In this document: positions 3,073 to 12,180 of the stretch, one piece after another
Layout of the letters: every line of letters begins with the position of its first letter
Numbering within the stretch: the first letter of the stretch is position 1
NCBI GenBank assembly: GCA_024763595.1
Contig: JANTFK010000001.1
Coordinates: 1-30,458, forward strand
Source: Bacteroidales bacterium
GTDB taxonomy: Bacteria > Bacteroidota > Bacteroidia > Bacteroidales > GCA-2748055
Length of the DNA: 30,458 nucleotides
Direction: 5' to 3'
Translations under genes and position numbers: made by a program
The notes under the pieces: generated by a model
Seen by the model: only the letters and a program-made list of their open reading frames with translations
Database searches by the model: none
Told to the model about the DNA's origin: nothing

Positions 3073-3315
3073 ATGAAGCGACAGAGATATATCATGCCAT
3101 CGGATATTGAGAAACAACTGGTAGTTCATGGTGTCATGGAGGATTATAAGCAACGTCCTGAATATCAGCAAAATGATTATATTGGTTGGATAGAAAGAGC
3201 AAAGCGGGAAAATACCAGGCAGACACGTATCAAACAGATGGTGGAAGAATTAATAACGGGGGGTGTTTATATGAAAATGGACCATCCGCCATCAAGGAAA
3301 ACTCAGGATAAGTGA
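3073..3315 (+). CDS. YdeI/OmpD-associated (OmdA, bacteriocin-protection) family small protein
   Basis: 80 aa; YQQNDYIGWIERAKRENTRQTRIKQMVEEL matches the family pattern Y..WI..AK...TR..RI..M...L. Confidence 0.8.
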   Translation: MKRQRYIMPSDIEKQLVVHGVMEDYKQRPEYQQNDYIGWIERAKRENTRQTRIKQMVEELITGGVYMKMDHPPSRKTQDK

Positions 3316-4316
3316 AAGTTAGAATTGGTATTGTACAAATGCAATCTGAACCATTGAAGGTCGATAGGAACCTTGCATTGGCAGAGCGCCTTATTGCAGA
3401 GGTATCTGATGCAGGCGCACAGATTGTGGTATTACCTGAACTGTTCAATGTTGGTTTTTATCTTGGTGAAGAACTCATGAAGCTTGCTGAAACACTGGAT
3501 GGAAAGACAGTCCGCCGGCTAAAGTCTATTTCCTCAAATCGAAAGATCTACCTGACCACAAGCATCTATGAGATCTATCAGGGGCACTACTACAACACAA
3601 TGGTGATGGTAGGTTACGATGGCAGTGTACAGCATTACCGGAAACGTAACCCCACATGGTTTGAAACATCTGTCTGGAGGAGAAGTGATAAAGCGGGTCC
3701 GGGAATATTCGAGACTCCTTACGGGCGCGTTGGCGGTGTCATTTGCTTCGATTCATTTTCCATGGAGACATTTCAGGGTTTCAAAAAGAGCGCTGTTGAT
3801 CTGGTTATTATTGTTTCTTGCTGGGGCACATCTGACAGCTGCAAAAAGCGGTTTGACGTGATGCTTGCCCGTCCGGCACTGAGAAAATTTTCTGTATTGG
3901 CCACAGAAACTGTACCACTGAATTATGCTACTCGACTGGGTGTCCCCACTGTCCTTGTCAATCAGGGAGGTGCAACGCATACTCCCGGTCAGGTACCGCG
4001 TTTTTATCCATTACCACCTTTAAAGAACATTAAATACGAGTTCATTGGAAATTCGAGTATTCGTAATGCGTCAGGTAAGGTTCTGGTGCAGGCAGTAGGG
4101 AATGTAAGCGAATTTTGTGCGGTGGAAGAAGTTGAGGTGGAGCCAACCGTCCCACCTCCCGGGCATAAACGAACGGACATTGCCAACAGGTATCTGGCCT
4201 CTGAATACTATTTTGTGAAACCGCCTCTGATGGCCCGAATCTTTCAGGCCTACTTTTACTCCGGGCTTCAAAAAATTTATGAAAAAAACAGAAAAAAATA
4301 TCAGCCTCATTTCTAA
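3312..4316 (+). CDS. Carbon-nitrogen hydrolase (nitrilase superfamily) protein
   Basis: Glu-Lys-Cys triad contexts are present: VVLPELF, HYRKRNP and VICFDS. The GTG start overlaps the upstream stop (GTGA), implying translational coupling. Confidence 0.9.
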   Translation: MKVRIGIVQMQSEPLKVDRNLALAERLIAEVSDAGAQIVVLPELFNVGFYLGEELMKLAETLDGKTVRRLKSISSNRKIYLTTSIYEIYQGHYYNTMVMVGYDGSVQHYRKRNPTWFETSVWRRSDKAGPGIFETPYGRVGGVICFDSFSMETFQGFKKSAVDLVIIVSCWGTSDSCKKRFDVMLARPALRKFSVLATETVPLNYATRLGVPTVLVNQGGATHTPGQVPRFYPLPPLKNIKYEFIGNSSIRNASGKVLVQAVGNVSEFCAVEEVEVEPTVPPPGHKRTDIANRYLASEYYFVKPPLMARIFQAYFYSGLQKIYEKNRKKYQPHF

Positions 4317-6019
4317 GGTACAATGATTAATGGATGAAGAATCCGGTCATACCTAGCTGATATATCGCTAAAATCAGGATCGCTCCCCTTGCCGGAACTA
4401 AACGGGAACAGGACCATCTTTTCATACATGGTTGTGCCTTCATGCAACGGTGTTATCAATGTATAAATATCAGAGAGGTAAGTGAGATTGGCAGCACGAA
4501 TGGTATAGACCCCCTTGTCACGGTAAACACTGACATAGCTTTTCGTCCGGCTTCTGTTCGGGTGCTGGCCTTTATTATTGAACAGTGCACTCCCGGCTGT
4601 AACAATGGCCATGCCATAACCCTTTTCTGTGTTATAAAGCGCCATCCAGGGAGTATTGACAGGCGCATTGGCTATCGGGGGAGATCCCGTATCATTCCCT
4701 TTTGCAAGCTCCAGTGAGATCGTTTTTATCTTTCCGTTTGGTAAGGGCCAGGCAGCATGGGTAAACATATGATTTGAAAATATCATTCCCTGATTGCGAA
4801 GTGCGTAAGCACGGCAATCCTCAACGATTCGAACAGACGACTCTAAATGAATTTCAGGACGATCAGCGTAGAACCGGTAGCGAACATGGGCTTCAGCTTC
4901 GGGAACATTGTGCATGCTTCCCCAGCGAATATTCTCACAAAAGACCGGTCCTTTGATCGAACGGACCATATATTCACCGGGATTCCAGTCAAAAGCATGA
5001 CTCCATTCCCGGCCTTCCACAAAAATTCCCGGTGTGCGGTTGATTGGCCTTATATCGTCGGGAAGATCCCTTGGATCATCATATCTGTATTCCATCGACC
5101 GTTGTTTATCGAACCAGGAAAACAACTGGCCTGACTTTGGGCTTAATCGCACACGGTAGAAATCATTTTCAACCAGCGTATCAGTCGTTACGGCAGATTT
5201 CATTGTAATGTTATTTTTTATCCGGGGGGAAGGATCGTCAGGACAATCCCATAACACAACCATCGCCTCAGCACGGGCTTTTAGTGAAAGTTGTACGGTG
5301 GCCCTGAAACGCACAACCGGTTCCTGGCTCCACAACCCGGTACAACCGAAAAGATGCTCCACATCGTAAACCTGGCATGGTATTTCCTGGTATGTTCCCG
5401 GTGAAGTCATCAAAGTAGCACGCAAATTTAGATCAGGGTCCCTGAAAACCGATTCTTGAATGGTAATATCGAATTCAACCGGTTCGTTCCTGCGGTCCAG
5501 TCCGGCCTCTTCACAAACCCTGAAAATCTGGTTACCGCCATTTGACTTCTCCCAGAAACCTCCTTTCCCGGGTGCCGGGGCTTCAAATACCAGGCTTCCG
5601 AGATCAATACCACATTGATACATCAATGTAATTGAATTTATTTCACCACTGCTCCAGGCAAAAGGTATATAGAGCTCTACCTTCTTCTTATTAACATGAT
5701 GAATGGCATTATCATCAAACCGAACCCCATCTACTATCCAGTATGTGTAAAGTGGTTCTTTTCCGTTAACAAATACGGTATAAGGTTTTAACAGCTCGTC
5801 CTCTGCAAACTGATCGGTATTCAATGTAACATGTATATGCAACTCCCGGATCTCTGGCGACCAGTACCCGTATTCATATTTAGCAAGATTGATTCCAAAA
5901 TCACCTTTTCCCGGGTTTGTTCTTTCCGCAGCCGGAAGAGGCACTGTTATAACAAAAAGTACTGTCAATTGCAGGTACAAAATGCATGATTTTTTAAATC
6001 TGTTTACGGGTTTTATCAT
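4313..6019 (-). CDS. Large secreted hypothetical protein, possibly with a supersandwich (galactose-mutarotase-like) carbohydrate-related module
   Basis: 578-aa track ORF from TTG 6049; ATG 6019 is more likely because it gives the signal peptide MIKPVNRFKKSCILYLQLTVLFVITVPLPA. Beta-rich; VENDFYRVRLSPKSGQL resembles the start of GH38-C-type supersandwich domains. The function call is weak. Confidence 0.7.
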   Translation of the reverse strand: MIKPVNRFKKSCILYLQLTVLFVITVPLPAAERTNPGKGDFGINLAKYEYGYWSPEIRELHIHVTLNTDQFAEDELLKPYTVFVNGKEPLYTYWIVDGVRFDDNAIHHVNKKKVELYIPFAWSSGEINSITLMYQCGIDLGSLVFEAPAPGKGGFWEKSNGGNQIFRVCEEAGLDRRNEPVEFDITIQESVFRDPDLNLRATLMTSPGTYQEIPCQVYDVEHLFGCTGLWSQEPVVRFRATVQLSLKARAEAMVVLWDCPDDPSPRIKNNITMKSAVTTDTLVENDFYRVRLSPKSGQLFSWFDKQRSMEYRYDDPRDLPDDIRPINRTPGIFVEGREWSHAFDWNPGEYMVRSIKGPVFCENIRWGSMHNVPEAEAHVRYRFYADRPEIHLESSVRIVEDCRAYALRNQGMIFSNHMFTHAAWPLPNGKIKTISLELAKGNDTGSPPIANAPVNTPWMALYNTEKGYGMAIVTAGSALFNNKGQHPNRSRTKSYVSVYRDKGVYTIRAANLTYLSDIYTLITPLHEGTTMYEKMVLFPFSSGKGSDPDFSDISARYDRILHPLIIVP

Positions 6020-6313
6020 GATGAAAAAGTTTTTTGACTTACACTTCAAGCGATTTCAGGAATCCCCGGGAGATCCGGATGGTAGCGTGACGAGGGCCTG
6101 GTATTCAGTTTTATAACTGCCTTGCCTCTTGTCTGCCGGGTACGTATACCCAGTGCACTGACAGGTAGCGCTGCGAGGGATGCCAGGCCGATTCGGAGAA
6201 AATTTAGTCTGCTGATGATGCGTTCCCTATTTTGTATTTTATGGTTTAAAAAAATTAAAGATATGAATTAATTACTTTCGTGCTCGTGCACATTGAATGA
6301 AAGCGTTCCAGAT

Positions 6314-6424
6314 ACGGCCTTTACGACATCACTCGCCAGGTGGAGGCAATCGTAGCTGAATCCGGTGTTCAGGCCGGCCTTGTCAATGTCTATGCCCAGG
6401 GAGCCACTACCGGAATTATGATTC
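6314..6424 (+). pseudogene. yjbQ: yjbQ 5' fragment, copy 1
   Basis: Encodes GLYDITRQVEAIVAESGVQAGLVNVYAQGATTGIMI, then diverges and stops. By hand count it matches intact yjbQ (10514-10621) at 85 of 108 nt. A possible eroded start lies at 6297 (ATG AAA GCG TTC CAG ATA), out of frame. Confidence 0.9.
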
Positions 6425-6520
6425 TTGTCATTTGAATATACCCTCTTTTCGTCATTGCTGTATCAACTTAATTGTACCTTATTTGGTAGTTTTATTAAAG
6501 ATGGATATTGCTAATTCGTA

Positions 6521-6549
6521 TTGACAAATACATACATATTGTATATATT
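6521..6549 (+). promoter_or_regulatory. Sigma70-type promoter of vapBC with an overlapping inverted repeat (candidate autoregulatory operator)
   Basis: TTGACA (6521-6526), 17 nt, TATATT (6544-6549). The inverted repeat ATACA-tat-TGTAT lies between the two boxes. The vapB ATG is 7 nt after the -10 box. Confidence 0.65.
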
Positions 6550-6555
6550 GCAGAC

Positions 6556-6753
6556 ATGAAAACAACATTAAATATAGATGATCAGATTCTCAGAAAAGCT
6601 TCCATGCTTACTGGAATATCTGAAAAAACCACTCTGGTAAGAAAAGGATTGGAAGCATTGATCGCCCAGGAGAGTGCCAAAAGGCTTGCTGCTCTTGGAG
6701 GAAGTGAAAAGCAACTGAAAAGCATTCCCAGGAGAAAATCGATCACTGAATGA
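6556..6753 (+). CDS. vapB: Type II antitoxin, VapB family (ribbon-helix-helix type)
   Basis: 65 aa from ATG 6556: MKTTLNIDDQILRKASMLTGISEKTTLVRKGLEALI... Its stop overlaps the PIN-toxin start (ATGA at 6750-6753). Confidence 0.85.
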   Translation: MKTTLNIDDQILRKASMLTGISEKTTLVRKGLEALIAQESAKRLAALGGSEKQLKSIPRRKSITE

Positions 6754-7157
6754 TATTGGTGGATACATCTGTTTGGATTGATCACTTTCATCATTCCGAT
6801 GAGGATTTAAAAGAATTGCTTCTTTCAAACCAGGTTTGCATTCATCCTTTTATTCTTGGCGAATTGAGCTGTGGGAATATTTCGAATCGAAAAGAAGTTC
6901 TATCACTTCTCAGGACACTCAGGATGATTGATCCGGTGCTGGATGAAGAAGTCTTCATTCTTATTGAAGAAAGAAAACTGTTTGGCAAGGGATTGGGATT
7001 TATTGATGTTCATTTACTTGCTTCATCATTGGTACATCATGTCCCTATTTGGACAAGAGATAAATCTTTAAAGCGGGTAACCGGAGAATTGAGTATCCAC
7101 TACGGACCACAACGGCTTCTACGACATAACCAGCCAGGTGGAAGCCATTGTCCCTGA
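6750..7157 (+). CDS. vapC: Type II toxin VapC, PIN-domain ribonuclease
   Basis: MILVDTSVWIDHF N-terminus with PIN acidic residues in VDT, GEL, FIDVHL and WTRDK. The last ~20 codons are read out of frame from the yjbQ fragment. Confidence 0.92.
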   Translation: MILVDTSVWIDHFHHSDEDLKELLLSNQVCIHPFILGELSCGNISNRKEVLSLLRTLRMIDPVLDEEVFILIEERKLFGKGLGFIDVHLLASSLVHHVPIWTRDKSLKRVTGELSIHYGPQRLLRHNQPGGSHCP

Positions 7158-7224
7158 ATCCGGAGTGCAGGCCGGCCTTGTCAATGTCTATGCCCAGGGA
7201 GCCACGGCGGGGATCATGATCCAG
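7093..7224 (+). pseudogene. yjbQ: yjbQ 5' fragment, copy 2
   Basis: Encodes VSTTDHNGFYDITSQVEAIVPESGVQAGLVNVYAQGATAGIMIQ, with no start codon. It shares an exact 38-nt block with copy 1 (7168-7205 = 6370-6407) and matches intact yjbQ at 84 of 108 nt by hand count. Confidence 0.92.
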
Positions 7225-7278
7225 TTCAAATTCATAGCCCCCAATTGACCTTCCAATCTGGCATGGGTCGAATATCCT

Positions 7279-8025
7279 CTAGTAGAATACCCAACCGAAA
7301 ATGATTGCAGTTCCATACCCCTGTCCTGTCGGACTGATGGCAGGGTTGTTTTCTGCTGCAGTATAGATGATTGCGATCTCCCAGCCTCTGGCTCCTTCAA
7401 AACAACCGGTACTTTGATCTCCAATATAACGGCCGTTTCGACGAAACCAGGAGTTTCCTTCTTCGTCAAATTGAAAGGGCAGATTCTCTGCTTCCATTTG
7501 AAGAGTGCCACACTCCAGTTCATAGAATCCCTCTCCATAGCCGTCATGGTCAGGAAGACAGAACACAGGAACATATTCACTGTAGACGGATCTGCAGAAC
7601 CATTCACCTTCTGCAATTGCTATACCAGTTATACCTCCAGGACCTTCTGGACAAGCCCCTGTTGGGGTTCCATCCAAATTAAAGCAGGGGATCCCCTGTC
7701 CTGGTTCGCAGGAACTTACAGGATAGAATTGCAGGTCGTATCCCAGTTTCATCAGTACAGGATGCCATCTGCCTTGCCATTTGCTACGCCATTTGTTTGA
7801 AGATTTTAAAGCTGGTTCAGAGAGAAATGCCTCACCGGGTCCCTGATTGAACAGGGCCATATCCTCCTCGGTCATAAATGAGGCAATCTCTTCAGGGATC
7901 TCAGGAATGGTGAATTCCGACTCCAGATCTTTGATTTCCTGATCGGTTGCAAGGTCCTTTTTTTCACAAGAGACCACAAATGCACACATCAGGAGGAATG
8001 CAAGAAAAATTCCGGGTGTTTTCAT
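7279..8025 (-). CDS. Hypothetical lipoprotein, Cys-rich
   Basis: 248 aa; signal peptidase II signal MKTPGIFLAFLLMCAFVVS-C followed by an acidic stretch (EKKDLATDQE). Seven further cysteines occur in the mature part. Confidence 0.8.
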   Translation of the reverse strand: MKTPGIFLAFLLMCAFVVSCEKKDLATDQEIKDLESEFTIPEIPEEIASFMTEEDMALFNQGPGEAFLSEPALKSSNKWRSKWQGRWHPVLMKLGYDLQFYPVSSCEPGQGIPCFNLDGTPTGACPEGPGGITGIAIAEGEWFCRSVYSEYVPVFCLPDHDGYGEGFYELECGTLQMEAENLPFQFDEEGNSWFRRNGRYIGDQSTGCFEGARGWEIAIIYTAAENNPAISPTGQGYGTAIIFGWVFY

Positions 8026-8102
8026 GATTATAATGTGAGATGAATAATTGGTGTATCATCTAACCAAATTATAATCAGCTCAAGTTGGGTGCTTTGGTAT
8101 GC

Positions 8103-8129
8103 GTCTCAAAGAATTTTCTCTCAGTCTCA
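8103..8129 (-). promoter_or_regulatory. Direct repeat TGAGAC x2 with 21-bp period; candidate AraC-domain binding site upstream of the lipoprotein gene
   Basis: GTCTCA at 8103-8108 and 8124-8129 on the + strand, in the gap between the regulator stop and the lipoprotein start. Confidence 0.45.
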
Positions 8130-8143
8130 TTACTCAGATAATC

Positions 8144-10306
8144 TCATTTTTTGCACGCTCGCGGATTTATACCATACGTTTCAGTGAACAGCTTACTAAA
8201 ATGGGAAAGATTTCTGAAACCGCTGGCGAAAGCTGCGTCAGACACATTGCTTTCTGTTTCTTCAAGCAATTTCTTTGCGTTCTGCAAACGCATGGTGCGG
8301 ATGCAATCATAGACAGATTTATCGGCAAGTGCCTGAAATTTCCTGTATAGCTGTGCCCTGCTCATCCCTACCGAAAGACAAATTTCTGCTATGCCAAAGG
8401 ATTCGTTGTGAAGATTTGCTCCAATGGTATCAAAAACCTTTCTCATAAATGAATCTTCATTATTTCCTGATTTTAACTTAGCTAACATCTCATACCCTGG
8501 CATAGAATACCTCTCCTGAAGACTTTTTCTTAAGTTAATTAACTTCTGCACTCTCATTTTTAACTCCTCTTCAGCAAAAGGTTTGGACAGGTAAGCATCG
8601 GCTCCCAGGTCGAGTCCTGCAAGCTTGGAGGGTAAATCTGCTTTCGCCGTAAGGATGATAATGGGAATATGGCTGGTTCTGAAATCCGATTTAAGCTGTT
8701 TTACCAGAGCGTAGCCATCCATTACAGGCATCATCAGATCCGTTATAATAATATCCGGAATCGTTTCGGTGGCCCGGTCAAGACCATCCTGCCCGTCTGA
8801 AGCTACTATAATACTGTATTCTGATTCGAGGATGGAACTGACATAAGATATCATATCCCTGTTGTCTTCGACGAGTAACAGGAGGGGGAAACGCTTCTCT
8901 GTATCCATCCATGTATCAGGGAAAGTCCCAGGTGATTGAAAACTCTTTGTTTCACTGCCATCTCCCTCCTTGAAAATGAAATCTTCTGTATTTATTTTAG
9001 ATGCATATTTCGTAACTGGTAACCGGACCGTAAACCTGGAACCTTCACCCACCTTGCTTTCGACCTGGATCTTTCCTCCCAGAAGATACACCAGCTCCCT
9101 GGTGATGGTAAGGCCTAACCCGGTACCCGCCTGATCTGCATCATGGTCTGTTCCTGCCTGGTAGTAGCTATCAAAAACATAAGGGATATTCTCCTCCGGT
9201 ATACCTGCACCATTATCCTTTACCTTTATAAAAAATTCCTCACCCGATCTGTCCTGTTGCGTGAATGATTGCACCGCAATATCCCCACCAGGAGAAGTGA
9301 ATTTAACGGCATTTGATATCAGGTTCGAGATAATGGCTCCCAGTTTGTCCCTGTCGAAGTCCATGATCATCCTGTCTGTATCAGCCGAGAAAGTTAGATT
9401 GATCCCTTTCGGGAGTGCGAGGGATTGAAAAGATTCGATCATGACCCTCATGAAATCAACGATATTTCCCTGCACCAGGTGGACAGGCATCGATCCGGCC
9501 TCAATCCTCGACAGATCCAGCATCTGATTAATCTGTTTTAGTACCTGTCTCCCGTTCCGGATGATCATTTCATGCTTCTCACTGTCCTGCCTATCCGGCC
9601 TGTTCTTTAATTGTTCAGCAGTACCAAGGATTATGGTCAGGGGAGTTCTGCATTCGTGGGATATATATGTGAAGAGCCTTGTACGGGTCTCATCCAGCTC
9701 TTTCAGCCTGGCCATTTCAGCCTCCTCCTCTCTGATCCTTGCACGGATATAGTTCACCACAAACAAAAAAATATACCCTGATATCCAGACCGCATTTACA
9801 GTGAAAAAGAGATGATTGATCTGCGGGGTCAATTCGTCCGGTATCTGCAGGAAGGGCTGAAGTATACCTGCAGCGATGATGGTCATGGAATACAATACCG
9901 CAAGGCTTAAAGTAATCCTGACTTTCTGGAAAACCACCGAAAAAACCACTGCGGCCAGTCCGACGAACACAATACCTATGGAAGTCGCAATGCCTCCAAG
10001 GAATAGAATACAGATGAAGGAAGAGAGTATTAGCAAAGCCTGGGCCATGATCCCAAACCACTCCATGTTCCTTTTCATCAAGCCAAATACCAGCGCATTG
10101 GCTGAATATAAGATCAATAGGAAAAGGCCGTAAATAACAAGGACCTGCAGCTGTAGAAAATACATGATTAGGGTCAGGCATCCCACAAAAACAACAACAA
10201 CAACAGAACCCAGGACAATTGTTCTTCTTGTAATAACAGAAGGCCCTTCCGAAGTCTTTGATCTCAGAAAGATATCCAAGCGGTCTATAACATTCCCAAG
10301 GGGCAT
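8144..10306 (-). CDS. Hybrid two-component regulator: ~6 TM helices, histidine kinase, receiver domain and AraC HTH
   Basis: H-box FTYISHECRTPL, N-box IISNLISNAVKF, G-boxes VKDNGAGI and GTGLGL, receiver LLVEDN...IITDLMMPVMDG, and C-terminal AraC HTH (MSRAQLYRK...SGFRNLSHFSKLF). Confidence 0.93.
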   Translation of the reverse strand: MPLGNVIDRLDIFLRSKTSEGPSVITRRTIVLGSVVVVVFVGCLTLIMYFLQLQVLVIYGLFLLILYSANALVFGLMKRNMEWFGIMAQALLILSSFICILFLGGIATSIGIVFVGLAAVVFSVVFQKVRITLSLAVLYSMTIIAAGILQPFLQIPDELTPQINHLFFTVNAVWISGYIFLFVVNYIRARIREEEAEMARLKELDETRTRLFTYISHECRTPLTIILGTAEQLKNRPDRQDSEKHEMIIRNGRQVLKQINQMLDLSRIEAGSMPVHLVQGNIVDFMRVMIESFQSLALPKGINLTFSADTDRMIMDFDRDKLGAIISNLISNAVKFTSPGGDIAVQSFTQQDRSGEEFFIKVKDNGAGIPEENIPYVFDSYYQAGTDHDADQAGTGLGLTITRELVYLLGGKIQVESKVGEGSRFTVRLPVTKYASKINTEDFIFKEGDGSETKSFQSPGTFPDTWMDTEKRFPLLLLVEDNRDMISYVSSILESEYSIIVASDGQDGLDRATETIPDIIITDLMMPVMDGYALVKQLKSDFRTSHIPIIILTAKADLPSKLAGLDLGADAYLSKPFAEEELKMRVQKLINLRKSLQERYSMPGYEMLAKLKSGNNEDSFMRKVFDTIGANLHNESFGIAEICLSVGMSRAQLYRKFQALADKSVYDCIRTMRLQNAKKLLEETESNVSDAAFASGFRNLSHFSKLFTETYGINPRACKK

Positions 10307-10362
10307 ATTCCCAGGATTAATCTGGAGTTAAATGTCTGAGAACTAATACAAATAAAGATATG

Positions 10363-10392
10363 AAAAAAAAGGGAATAATATCTCTATTCCCT
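10363..10392 (-). terminator. Putative intrinsic terminator on the minus strand, upstream of yjbQ
   Basis: 8-bp stem AGGGAATA (10370-10377) / TATTCCCT (10385-10392) with a 7-nt loop; the A-run at 10363-10370 gives a U-tract on the minus strand. Confidence 0.55.
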
Positions 10393-10471
10393 GCTCACTC
10401 AATATGCGCATTTCCGGAGGATTGGTTAGTTTTGTGTGTACGATCTCGATCAATACCACATTATATCCATT

Positions 10472-10879
10472 ATGATGCAGCGCACCATCCAAATATCCAC
10501 ACCCGCCCATAACGGCCTCTATGACATCACCCGTCAGGTGGAGACCATCGTAGCGGAATCCGGCGTGCACACCGGTATGGTGAATGTTTATGTCCAGGGC
10601 GCCACAGCAGGGATTATGATCCAGGAGAACTGGGACGATTCGGTGCAGCAGGATGTGATCACCCTGCTCAATAAACTGATTCCTTCAGGTGTCTGGGAGC
10701 ATGATCACCAGGATAACAACGGCGATGCCCATCTGAAAGCAGGGATCGTGGGGCCGCAGGAGACCATCCCCGTTGTGGATGGCAAACTGGGGCTCTCCAC
10801 CTGGCAGAATATTTTCTTATGTGAATTTGACGGGCCCCGTAACCAGAGAAAAATTTTGGTTACCGTCACTCCTGAATGA
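10472..10879 (+). CDS. yjbQ: YjbQ/UPF0047 family protein (annotated as secondary thiamine-phosphate synthase)
   Basis: HDHQDNNGDAHLKA and GKLGLSTWQNIFLCEFDGPRNQRKI motifs. Start is ATG 10472 or 10475 rather than the track's 10436. The 3' end overlaps queG by 14 nt. Confidence 0.92.
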   Translation: MMQRTIQISTPAHNGLYDITRQVETIVAESGVHTGMVNVYVQGATAGIMIQENWDDSVQQDVITLLNKLIPSGVWEHDHQDNNGDAHLKAGIVGPQETIPVVDGKLGLSTWQNIFLCEFDGPRNQRKILVTVTPE

Positions 10880-11804
10880 AACGTAAAGTGCGCTTGATTT
10901 TGTCGTATCCTGCCCTTTGCAGGGGAGAATCCCGAAACATGTGCTGATACCGGCCATGGTCCAGGTTGTTCCAGTCAGATGTTGTCATTTCCAGTAGCTC
11001 CGGGTGTGGATCAAATGCCGGTTCACGATGCTGCAAAGCCTTCTTGTTCCAGGGACACACATCCTGGCAGATATCACATCCGAAGATCCGGTTGTTAAGT
11101 TTTCCCTCCAGATCACTTGAGATCTCTCCCTTGTTTTCGATGGTCTGGTAGGAGATGCATTTTTTTGCATCCAGCGTCCGGTTATCCAGAATGGCCCCGG
11201 TGGGGCATGCATCAATACATCGGGTGCAGGTTCCGCAATGATCTTCTTCCCGGAAGGTATTGTAATCCAGTTCAAGGTTCAGGATGATCTCGCCTATAAA
11301 CAGGAAAGAGCCTGCACACCTGGATATGAGGCTGGAATTTTTACCGATCCATCCCAAACCGGCCCTTTGTGCCCAGCTCCGTTCCAGCACCGGGGCCGAA
11401 TCAACAAAAACCCTGCCTGTGGCTCCAGAATGTAATGATTTGATATAATCAAACAGCTCATACATTCTCTCCTTCATCACCAGGTGGTAATCCCTCCCAT
11501 AGGCATATTTAGACAGCACCGGGGCCTCAGGATCTGTCTGTTTCCTCTCGGTATAATAATTATAGAGCAGCGAGATTACTGTACGGGCCCCTTCCACCAG
11601 TCTGGTCGGATCGGTACGTTTTTCGAAATGGTTGGCCATATAGCCCATGCCGGCATGGTATCCCTGTTTCAGCCACTTTCCCAGCCTTTCTGTATCTTCC
11701 TTAAGCACTTCAGCCCTGGAAAATCCGCAATCGGTAAACCCCAGACGTACCGCCTCCTCCCTGATGGTCCTGGATATTTCCGGTATAGATTTTTGGTTTC
11801 CCAT
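10866..11804 (-). CDS. queG: Epoxyqueuosine reductase
   Basis: SKYAYGRDYH, VDSAPVLER, GLGWIGKNS, and two Fe-S cysteine clusters CGTCTRCIDACPT and CDICQDVCPWN. Confidence 0.95.
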   Translation of the reverse strand: MGNQKSIPEISRTIREEAVRLGFTDCGFSRAEVLKEDTERLGKWLKQGYHAGMGYMANHFEKRTDPTRLVEGARTVISLLYNYYTERKQTDPEAPVLSKYAYGRDYHLVMKERMYELFDYIKSLHSGATGRVFVDSAPVLERSWAQRAGLGWIGKNSSLISRCAGSFLFIGEIILNLELDYNTFREEDHCGTCTRCIDACPTGAILDNRTLDAKKCISYQTIENKGEISSDLEGKLNNRIFGCDICQDVCPWNKKALQHREPAFDPHPELLEMTTSDWNNLDHGRYQHMFRDSPLQRAGYDKIKRTLRFIQE

Positions 11805-11856
11805 GAACTAAATACGCTGTACTGTGTACTGTCCACTGAGCACAATGAATTGTGCA

Positions 11857-12180
11857 CTACAAAAATCCCAGCTCCAGTTTGGCTTCCTCGCTGAGCATCG
11901 ATTTATCCCACGGTGGATCAAAAACCAGGTTAACATTTGCTTTTTCCACACCCTCTACCGACTTCACTGCATTTTCCACATCCATGATCAGCATGTCCAC
12001 AAGGGGACAGTTGGGTGCGGTGAGGGTCATCGTGATATTGGCCTCTTTTTTATCGGTGTAATCTATTTCATAAATAAGCCCCAGATCATATACATTGACA
12101 GGTATTTCCGGGTCAAATACCTGCTTCAATGCCTCTACGATTTTTCCTTCTATCTCTAAAAAATCAATTGGTTCACTCAT
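11857..12180 (-). CDS. sufT: DUF59/SufT-like Fe-S cluster assembly protein
   Basis: DPEIPVNVYDLGLIY and MTLTAPNCP motifs; directly follows sufE. Confidence 0.9.
   Translation of the reverse strand: MSEPIDFLEIEGKIVEALKQVFDPEIPVNVYDLGLIYEIDYTDKKEANITMTLTAPNCPLVDMLIMDVENAVKSVEGVEKANVNLVFDPPWDKSMLSEEAKLELGFL

Follow-up and report, generated by a model that had tools for sequence, protein, structure and literature searches.

The window analysed here is the whole of contig C1 (30,458 nucleotides (nt); GenBank JANTFK010000001.1) of a metagenome-assembled genome (MAG) of the Bacteroidales genus GCA-2748055, recovered from a hydrothermal-vent metagenome. It carries on its forward strand an intact yjbQ gene preceded by two partial copies of the 5' part of the same gene, A and B. 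A repeat search (family D1: 6314-6443, 7112-7241 and 10512-10641; identities 79% and 72%), an alignment and tblastn all recovered the three co-oriented yjbQ 5' segments that an initial annotation of the window had pointed out, and in the alignment the homology of all three copies stops at one point. There, at yjbQ codons 48-50, all three share an 8-bp core, AT(C/T)ATGAT, which lies within 2 nt of the common breakpoint that the annotation had placed. The two upstream copies had been described as the first ~45 codons of the gene; they are indeed partial yjbQ 5' ends, but both begin some codons into the gene and lack the start codon (Table 1). Between them the copies delimit two segments, each with a core and an arm at its left end and a core at its right: segment 1 (6423-7220, 798 bp) contains a vapBC toxin-antitoxin pair, and segment 2 (7221-10620, 3400 bp) contains genes for a lipoprotein-like protein and a hybrid histidine kinase.

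Table 1. Features of the yjbQ locus in the window (PWM, position weight matrix)
Feature	Position	Strand	Evidence
yjbQ 5' copy A, putatively the oldest displaced gene start; codons ~12-49, no start codon	6306-6422	+	tblastn residues 12-50, 77% identity, E 2e-14
Core A, ATTATGAT	6415-6422	+	
22-nt arm, left end of segment 1, 4 nt past core	6427-6448	+	PWM score 30.0
vapB antitoxin, segment 1 cargo	6556-6753	+	PF09957, E 1.6e-12
vapC PIN toxin, segment 1 cargo; reads into copy B	6750-7157	+	PF01850, E 2e-9
yjbQ 5' copy B, putatively the second displaced gene start; codons ~8-49, no start codon	7093-7220	+	tblastn residues 8-54, E 2e-16
Core B, ATCATGAT, perfect palindrome	7213-7220	+	
Arm subtype 2, left end of segment 2	7225-7246	+	PWM score 20.5
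Lipoprotein-like protein, 248 aa, segment 2 cargo	7279-8025	-	no Pfam match
Hybrid histidine kinase + receiver + AraC regulator, segment 2 cargo	8144-10306	-	HisKA, HATPase_c, Response_reg, HTH_18
TAnnTTTG motif, ~40 nt upstream of yjbQ	10427-10434	+	
Intact yjbQ (UPF0047)	10472-10879	+	PF01894 over full model, E 1.5e-41
Core in intact yjbQ	10613-10620	+	

The MAG is 83% complete and consists of 518 contigs, and the Logan contigs of the source run break at the longest exact repeat between A and B, which is 38 nt. Both facts are what would be expected if the repeats were a chimeric assembly of strain variants, one form of an explanation by artefact or local rearrangement to which we give next to no credence. 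Those same Logan contigs cover positions 5000-12000 at even depth (10-12) with breaks at the 38-nt repeat only and with no alternative joint seen, and an independent 2017 study yielded identical vapBC, cargo and core-spanning pieces with 0 mismatches. Moreover, the same architecture was found in 23 genomes, including 754-kb and 880-kb contigs of relatives. The three yjbQ 5' repeats are not an assembly artefact, which settles a doubt that the initial annotation had itself raised.

The second form of that explanation, in which the start of yjbQ was duplicated in situ and then decayed, bears on the divergence of the copies. Within arrays, the proportion of synonymous differences per site (pS) is 0.5-0.75 and its non-synonymous counterpart relative to it (pN/pS) is ~0.05-0.3; for the pairs formed by A, B and the intact gene of the window, pS is 0.5-0.6 and pN/pS is 0.13, 0.16 and 0.18. 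Divergence that is mostly synonymous indicates that the copies diverged under purifying selection as working genes in different lineages and not by local duplication and decay, and the window values exclude a recent local duplication. Some displaced 5' ends are nearly identical to the current one (99% in genome G018, 96% in G011 and 94% in G033), indicating recent events. Among the 15 intact genes recovered from the genus, the identities of the 5' and 3' halves were uncorrelated (r = 0.015). G001 and G084, two different species, share a 100% identical yjbQ block (L040:10281-10500 against L084, on contig 91 of G084) that begins exactly at the ATG and ends 15 nt beyond the core; the next 54 nt hold one mismatch, after which the 3' half drops to ~86%, and the DNA upstream is unrelated. 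The shared block is a recent recombination tract bounded by a homology edge, and yjbQ in this genus is mosaic.

A search for yjbQ in relatives followed by retrieval of the loci gave 48 partial 5' copies, spread over 23 genomes, in addition to the 15 intact genes. Many genus-mates carry one to several fragments (residues ~2-50) upstream of the intact gene, with up to 8 displaced 5' ends per genome, and most partial copies in relatives begin at the ATG. All 63 copies are co-oriented. The alignment ends at residue 49-60, which corresponds to the core, in 42 of the 48 partial copies; six stop earlier and are degenerate. The breakpoints elsewhere in the genus are thus not scattered along yjbQ, in agreement with the hotspot that the initial annotation had proposed. 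The DNA that follows the partial copies had been called accessory, and this view also held: cargo is highly variable between relatives, with the right flank (queG and the suf operon) conserved and everything to the left variable. When the 91 genomes of the family were searched at the DNA level, no other genus had multiple yjbQ copies.

Four variable bases past the core, a conserved arm of 22 nt (consensus TTCATTTGAATGTACCCTCTTT, with three subtypes; PWM score 14 or above) is present in 37 of 45 partial copies, whatever the cargo that follows; the initial annotation had not noted it. An arm adjoins a core in the window's own genome only at the two places listed in Table 1, and across 49 genus genomes good arm matches were limited to yjbQ loci and one further locus in G018. 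When the exact arm pattern was sought in one genome per species from 185,579 species, 12 stretches matched, ten of them yjbQ 5' fragments in MAGs of uncultured Bacteroidales or Bacteroidota and two of them chance matches inside unrelated genes. A loose version of the pattern gave only noise across the genus, and an Rfam search returned no match. A single-strand hairpin of the attC-like or IS200-like kind was considered and found no support, as the single-stranded DNA folds no better than shuffled sequences (z +0.5 to +1.6).

The opposite type of junction, a yjbQ 3' fragment preceded by a perfect ATCATGAT and, 4 nt further upstream, by an inverted arm, was found in three genomes (G001, G020 and G007). 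In G001 it is placed after an intact yjbQ and two cargo genes, and G020 has the same layout with a decayed 3' remnant; in G007 yjbQ is simply split, with the two element ends on separate contigs, and an intact orthologue was not found. G001 and G020 hold complete arm-bounded elements, of 5.2 kb and 2.7 kb respectively, each with a whole yjbQ inside and each flanked by host yjbQ halves that would rejoin in frame. Contig 8 of G018 contains an arm-core-arm site resembling attP (L052:17652-17711); a further inverted arm, with a core and yjbQ residues 48-96, lies to the left of this site at a distance of 4.5 kb. Taken together, the core, arm, inverted-arm and arm-core-arm junctions show that sites of attB, attL, attR and attP type all exist.

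We believe that yjbQ codons 48-50 probably serve a family of integrative elements as attachment site, and that the locus is a hotspot occupied by decayed or trans-mobilised members of it. The attachment site would be the 8-bp core, the element ends would be the ~22-nt inverted arms lying 4 nt from it, and the elements would integrate at the core by site-specific recombination. Each insertion would leave the host 5' part of yjbQ, a core and the left arm on one side, and the right arm, a core and the host 3' part on the other. The incoming DNA would bring its own yjbQ, or at least a 5' end with a promoter, so that the gene would be rebuilt and become the next target. Repeated insertions would stack displaced 5' ends and left arms at the left, the newest adjoining the gene, and the window could then be a record of two events, with the vapBC segment arriving first and the segment with the lipoprotein-like and hybrid kinase genes second. 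As both segments are without a recombinase, they would be decayed or trans-mobilised remnants comparable to cis-mobilisable elements (CIMEs), much as the initial annotation had suggested on seeing no integrase in the window. Most of the matching right-hand junctions are gone. They may have been lost by homologous recombination between directly repeated 3' parts of yjbQ, which would at the same time delete a recombinase gene located at the right end and make the 3' halves mosaic. Nested insertion followed by loss of the right-hand parts fits the G001 and G020 elements with their whole internal yjbQ. The serial integration hotspot postulated by the annotation is supported by the core, the arms, the right-hand junctions and the arm-core-arm site, but its route through circles that carry a 5' end only may be wrong, given that the G001 and G020 elements hold the whole gene.

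Several observations weigh against integration by such a family. All insertions have the same orientation, although a palindromic core confers no polarity. The vapC-linked 5' copies form no cluster (0.737 vs 0.732), which leaves joint inheritance of cargo and 5' end undemonstrated. Neither a free attP, nor a circle, nor an empty-site variant was seen in the Logan contigs of four runs, in viral contigs or in the 49 genus genomes, although the annotation had looked to circular junctions and empty sites as traces of mobility; contigs drop rare variants, however, and a missing excision or empty-site joint in contigs is no evidence of immobility. The viral contigs contained no yjbQ relative and no arm pattern, and none of their 69 chance matches to a short attP-like pattern had real arms. 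The window has no recombinase, and a scan of ~50 proteins in and beside the arrays found no recombinase or transposase. The remaining two points concern candidate enzymes found elsewhere. Seven metagenome loci with an integrase 78-93% identical to the one in G018 described below share the gene alone, with no arms, and 11 large-serine-recombinase loci (PF07508, in 10 of the 49 genus genomes) had no arm or yjbQ fragment within flanks of ~1.5 kb.

The only link to an enzyme is a single case, in G018, where a tyrosine integrase lies beside an arm; we regard it as weak evidence. The protein is of a Bacteroidota type (442 aa; L052:11476-12804; Arm-DNA-bind_5, Phage_int_SAM_5 and Phage_integrase). 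The inverted arm with its core lies 338 nt beyond the stop codon of the gene, and the attP-like site lies 4.9 kb downstream. The locus (L052:10636-17711) runs in the order hicAB, tyrosine integrase, inverted arm and core with yjbQ residues 48-96, five cargo genes and arm-core-arm, and insertion-sequence fragments lie to the right of the arm-core-arm site, in a decayed region that holds the only transposase fragments seen. The layout suggests an attP-like site next to an integrase, into which a segment bearing a 3' end of yjbQ may later have inserted; the left end of the supposed element was not found within 50 kb. Homologues of the integrase are present in only four of 36 genus-mates, none adjoining arms, and arms are likewise missing beside more distant homologues in three other genus genomes (one of these matching only in part) and in a genome from a different family. 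The annotation had proposed to look for a recombinase next to such loci in relatives; one integrase beside an arm came to light, and no enzyme is firmly tied to the site. The window's own MAG (G000), which is only 83% complete, gave no PF00239 or PF07508 match, and its tyrosine recombinases, a 309-aa Xer-like protein and two partial matches, are all on other contigs. No integrase is present in the parts seen of the two-armed elements of G001, G020 and G007. MAGs tend to lose plasmids and conjugative elements and, because the genomes here are MAGs as far as their records were consulted, the absence of a recombinase is weak evidence.

The sites themselves offer some guidance as to the enzyme. 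That the same eight bases recur at every site, the non-coding one of attP type among them, suits the overlap region of a tyrosine recombinase, and a near-palindromic attP of ~60 bp suits a large serine integrase. We favour a tyrosine recombinase, at somewhat less than an even chance, over a large serine recombinase, which we consider possible and no more; the rest goes to other or unknown enzymes. On visual inspection, the inverted halves of the core adjoin without a spacer (the dif-like sites of Xer-dependent elements, such as IMEX and dif modules, being 11 + 6-8 + 11 bp).

There are two related alternatives. An active, integron-like cassette platform, in which a host or plasmid recombinase exchanges circles of arm, cargo and yjbQ 5' end with the intact gene (hybrid-site x attB), would amount to living gene capture instead of a pile of relics; we think it unlikely. 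It would agree with the small size of the cassettes, often one toxin-antitoxin pair and up to 8 in a genome, with an arm conserved across unrelated cargo, with the occurrence of the same 5-kb cassette at different array positions in G033 and G004, and with the recent events to which the near-identical displaced and current 5' ends of G018, G011 and G033 point. However, no conserved recombinase adjoins the locus, and circle and empty-site junctions were absent from the contigs of the four runs. Copies A and B are also truncated at the 5' side and other copies have degenerated to identities as low as 44%, and the existence of complete two-armed elements leaves hybrid-site circles unneeded. We hold it to be rather unlikely, too, that codons 48-50 are the capture site of a gene-embedded integron-like system whose recombinase, borne by a plasmid or conjugative element and for that reason usually missing from MAG bins, acts in trans to move units of arm, cargo and gene end between species of the genus. 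If so, the host yjbQ would serve both as attI and as expression platform, and the toxin-antitoxin cassettes would stabilise the array.

The inverted arms at both ends and the identical flanking 8 bp of the G001 and G020 elements (those of G007 being on separate contigs) are also what a target-specific transposon family would produce, with the arms as terminal inverted repeats, ATCATGAT as an 8-bp target-site duplication and a transposase acting in trans. We consider this very unlikely. Transposon termini normally abut the duplication, but four variable bases separate arm and repeated 8 bp here; all of the ~50 events hit a single site of a single gene; the arrays have no transposase associated with them; and one-armed segments carrying a gene end are not expected from transposition. 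Arm-bounded copies at unrelated sites with other 8-bp duplications were not found in the 49 genomes.

Integration of att-bounded elements, our preferred reading, has precedents in several known systems. SXT/R391 elements at prfC and the dusA-associated islands target a fixed position within the 5' region of a gene and supply a replacement 5' end. The yjbQ system resembles them in using one fixed site in the gene's 5' third (42 of 48 copies at the core), and in that the incoming DNA would supply a new promoter and 5' coding end and leave the old 5' end upstream. The replacement end appears functional, to judge by an intact open reading frame with a full Pfam match, a promoter-like motif and pN/pS far below 1 between copies. 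Unlike those elements, which have their own tyrosine integrase at the att site, the yjbQ elements have none save the unconfirmed G018 case; they also build up as many as 8 displaced ends, and some of them bring the complete yjbQ and leave a 3' fragment behind as well. CIMEs are att-bounded segments without integrase or transfer genes that are stacked at one attachment site. The window segments are likewise att-bounded, stacked and free of recombination and transfer genes, but a resident integrative and conjugative or integrative and mobilisable element (ICE or IME) with a matching integrase was not seen in the 49 genomes, and the site is intragenic, with the gene rebuilt each time. CIMEs and tandem accretion beside ICEs, for example in the ICESt1/ICESt3 family, are among the subjects of a review (PMC5704250).

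The Vibrio superintegrons, too, consist of small cassettes that share one orientation and include many toxin-antitoxin pairs, with a repeated recombination site between them and the newest unit nearest the capture site. Unlike integrons, the yjbQ arrays have no intI and no attI, and their site lacks a single-strand fold; the cassettes carry promoters and can be multi-gene, and the repeated unit is the start of a protein-coding gene. The near-palindromic joined ends recall gene-splitting elements with large serine integrases (SPbeta in spsM, skin in sigK), but no serine recombinase was found near any arm, and eight identical bases with a palindromic centre are unusual for such sites. The initial annotation knew of no case of yjbQ as an attachment site, a statement overtaken by a preprint on Vibrio cholerae that names yjbQ as a recurrent insertion site for small islands (bioRxiv 10.1101/2024.07.25.605194). 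That report concerns another phylum, and its available text names the site by the flanking gene, with no intragenic core or array structure. The use of yjbQ as a target is thus not new; what is new is a Bacteroidales system with a defined core and arms, an array depth of up to 8, two-sided accretion and no recognisable recombinase.

About 50 independent junctions in one genus suffice, without experiment, to define the core, both arms and the four att forms, and the recombinase, once found, would give a new defined attB/attP pair. The locus also illustrates how a conserved, apparently dispensable gene can gather accessory genes and yet stay intact; here they are toxin-antitoxin pairs, regulators, transporters and a set resembling osmolyte synthesis. 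With Bacteroidota joining the V. cholerae report, the question becomes why yjbQ attracts unrelated recombinases. That yjbQ looks dispensable follows from its being truncated, split or absent in some genomes, together with the presence of paralogues: it is truncated or split in G006 (L060:6188-6331), G030 (L053:12105-12242) and G007 (L055, L056), an intact orthologue was not found with this query in eight of 36 genus-mates, and most genomes hold yjbQ paralogues of 30-40% identity.

Other features of the locus concern the gene starts and the arms. The TAnnTTTG motif upstream of the intact yjbQ, which we take to be a Bacteroidota -7 box, lies in a GATTGSTTAnnTTTG context that also precedes many 5' copies in relatives; we read this promoter-like motif as moving along with the newest 5' end. 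In the direction of the core, the arm resembles a ribosome-binding site and start codon, AAAGAGGGTACATTCAA ATG AAn nnn ATC ATG ATC, as in the minus strand of window 6427-6448, L055:9852-9873 and L040:12673-12694. At right-hand junctions the ATG of the arm is in frame with the yjbQ 3' fragment. A truncated YjbQ may be made from this start, or the resemblance may be accidental. In the window, yjbQ overlaps the convergent queG by 14 nt (10866-10879); a 167-aa gene lies between the two in 14 related loci and is missing here.

A deletion of ~60 bp (window 7060-7110) removed the last codons and stop of vapC along with the first 7 codons of copy B, and vapC, having lost its native stop, is thereby fused to copy B, coding for 135 aa instead of the 118 aa in relatives. 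The PIN domain of the window VapC is intact and is followed by a foreign tail of ~20 aa. A look-up of its exact sequence in public assemblies gave no match, because this fusion is unique to the window. On the far left of the array, between it and the conserved left flank (GSCFA gene), the minus strand of window 4313-6049 codes for a protein of 578 aa that has no match in Pfam. A yjbQ fragment directly adjoins the GSCFA gene in G015, so that 3073-6049 could represent an even earlier insertion that has lost its gene-start marker by decay.

Among the cargo of relatives, vapBC lies beside a yjbQ 5' copy in at least 10 genomes, with 118-aa vapC homologues 77-90% identical; MNT/HepT pairs occur in 4-5 genomes and a UPF0175/DUF3368 pair in one case. 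Other cargo includes two-component and sigma-54 regulators, FtsX, ABC-2 and sodium:solute transporters, hydrolases and others. The 5-kb set common to the two species G033 and G004 (L039:9401-13949 and L041:1095-5682) comprises lysine-2,3-aminomutase, a GNAT acetyltransferase and a sodium:solute symporter, and may be an N-acetyl-beta-lysine osmolyte set.

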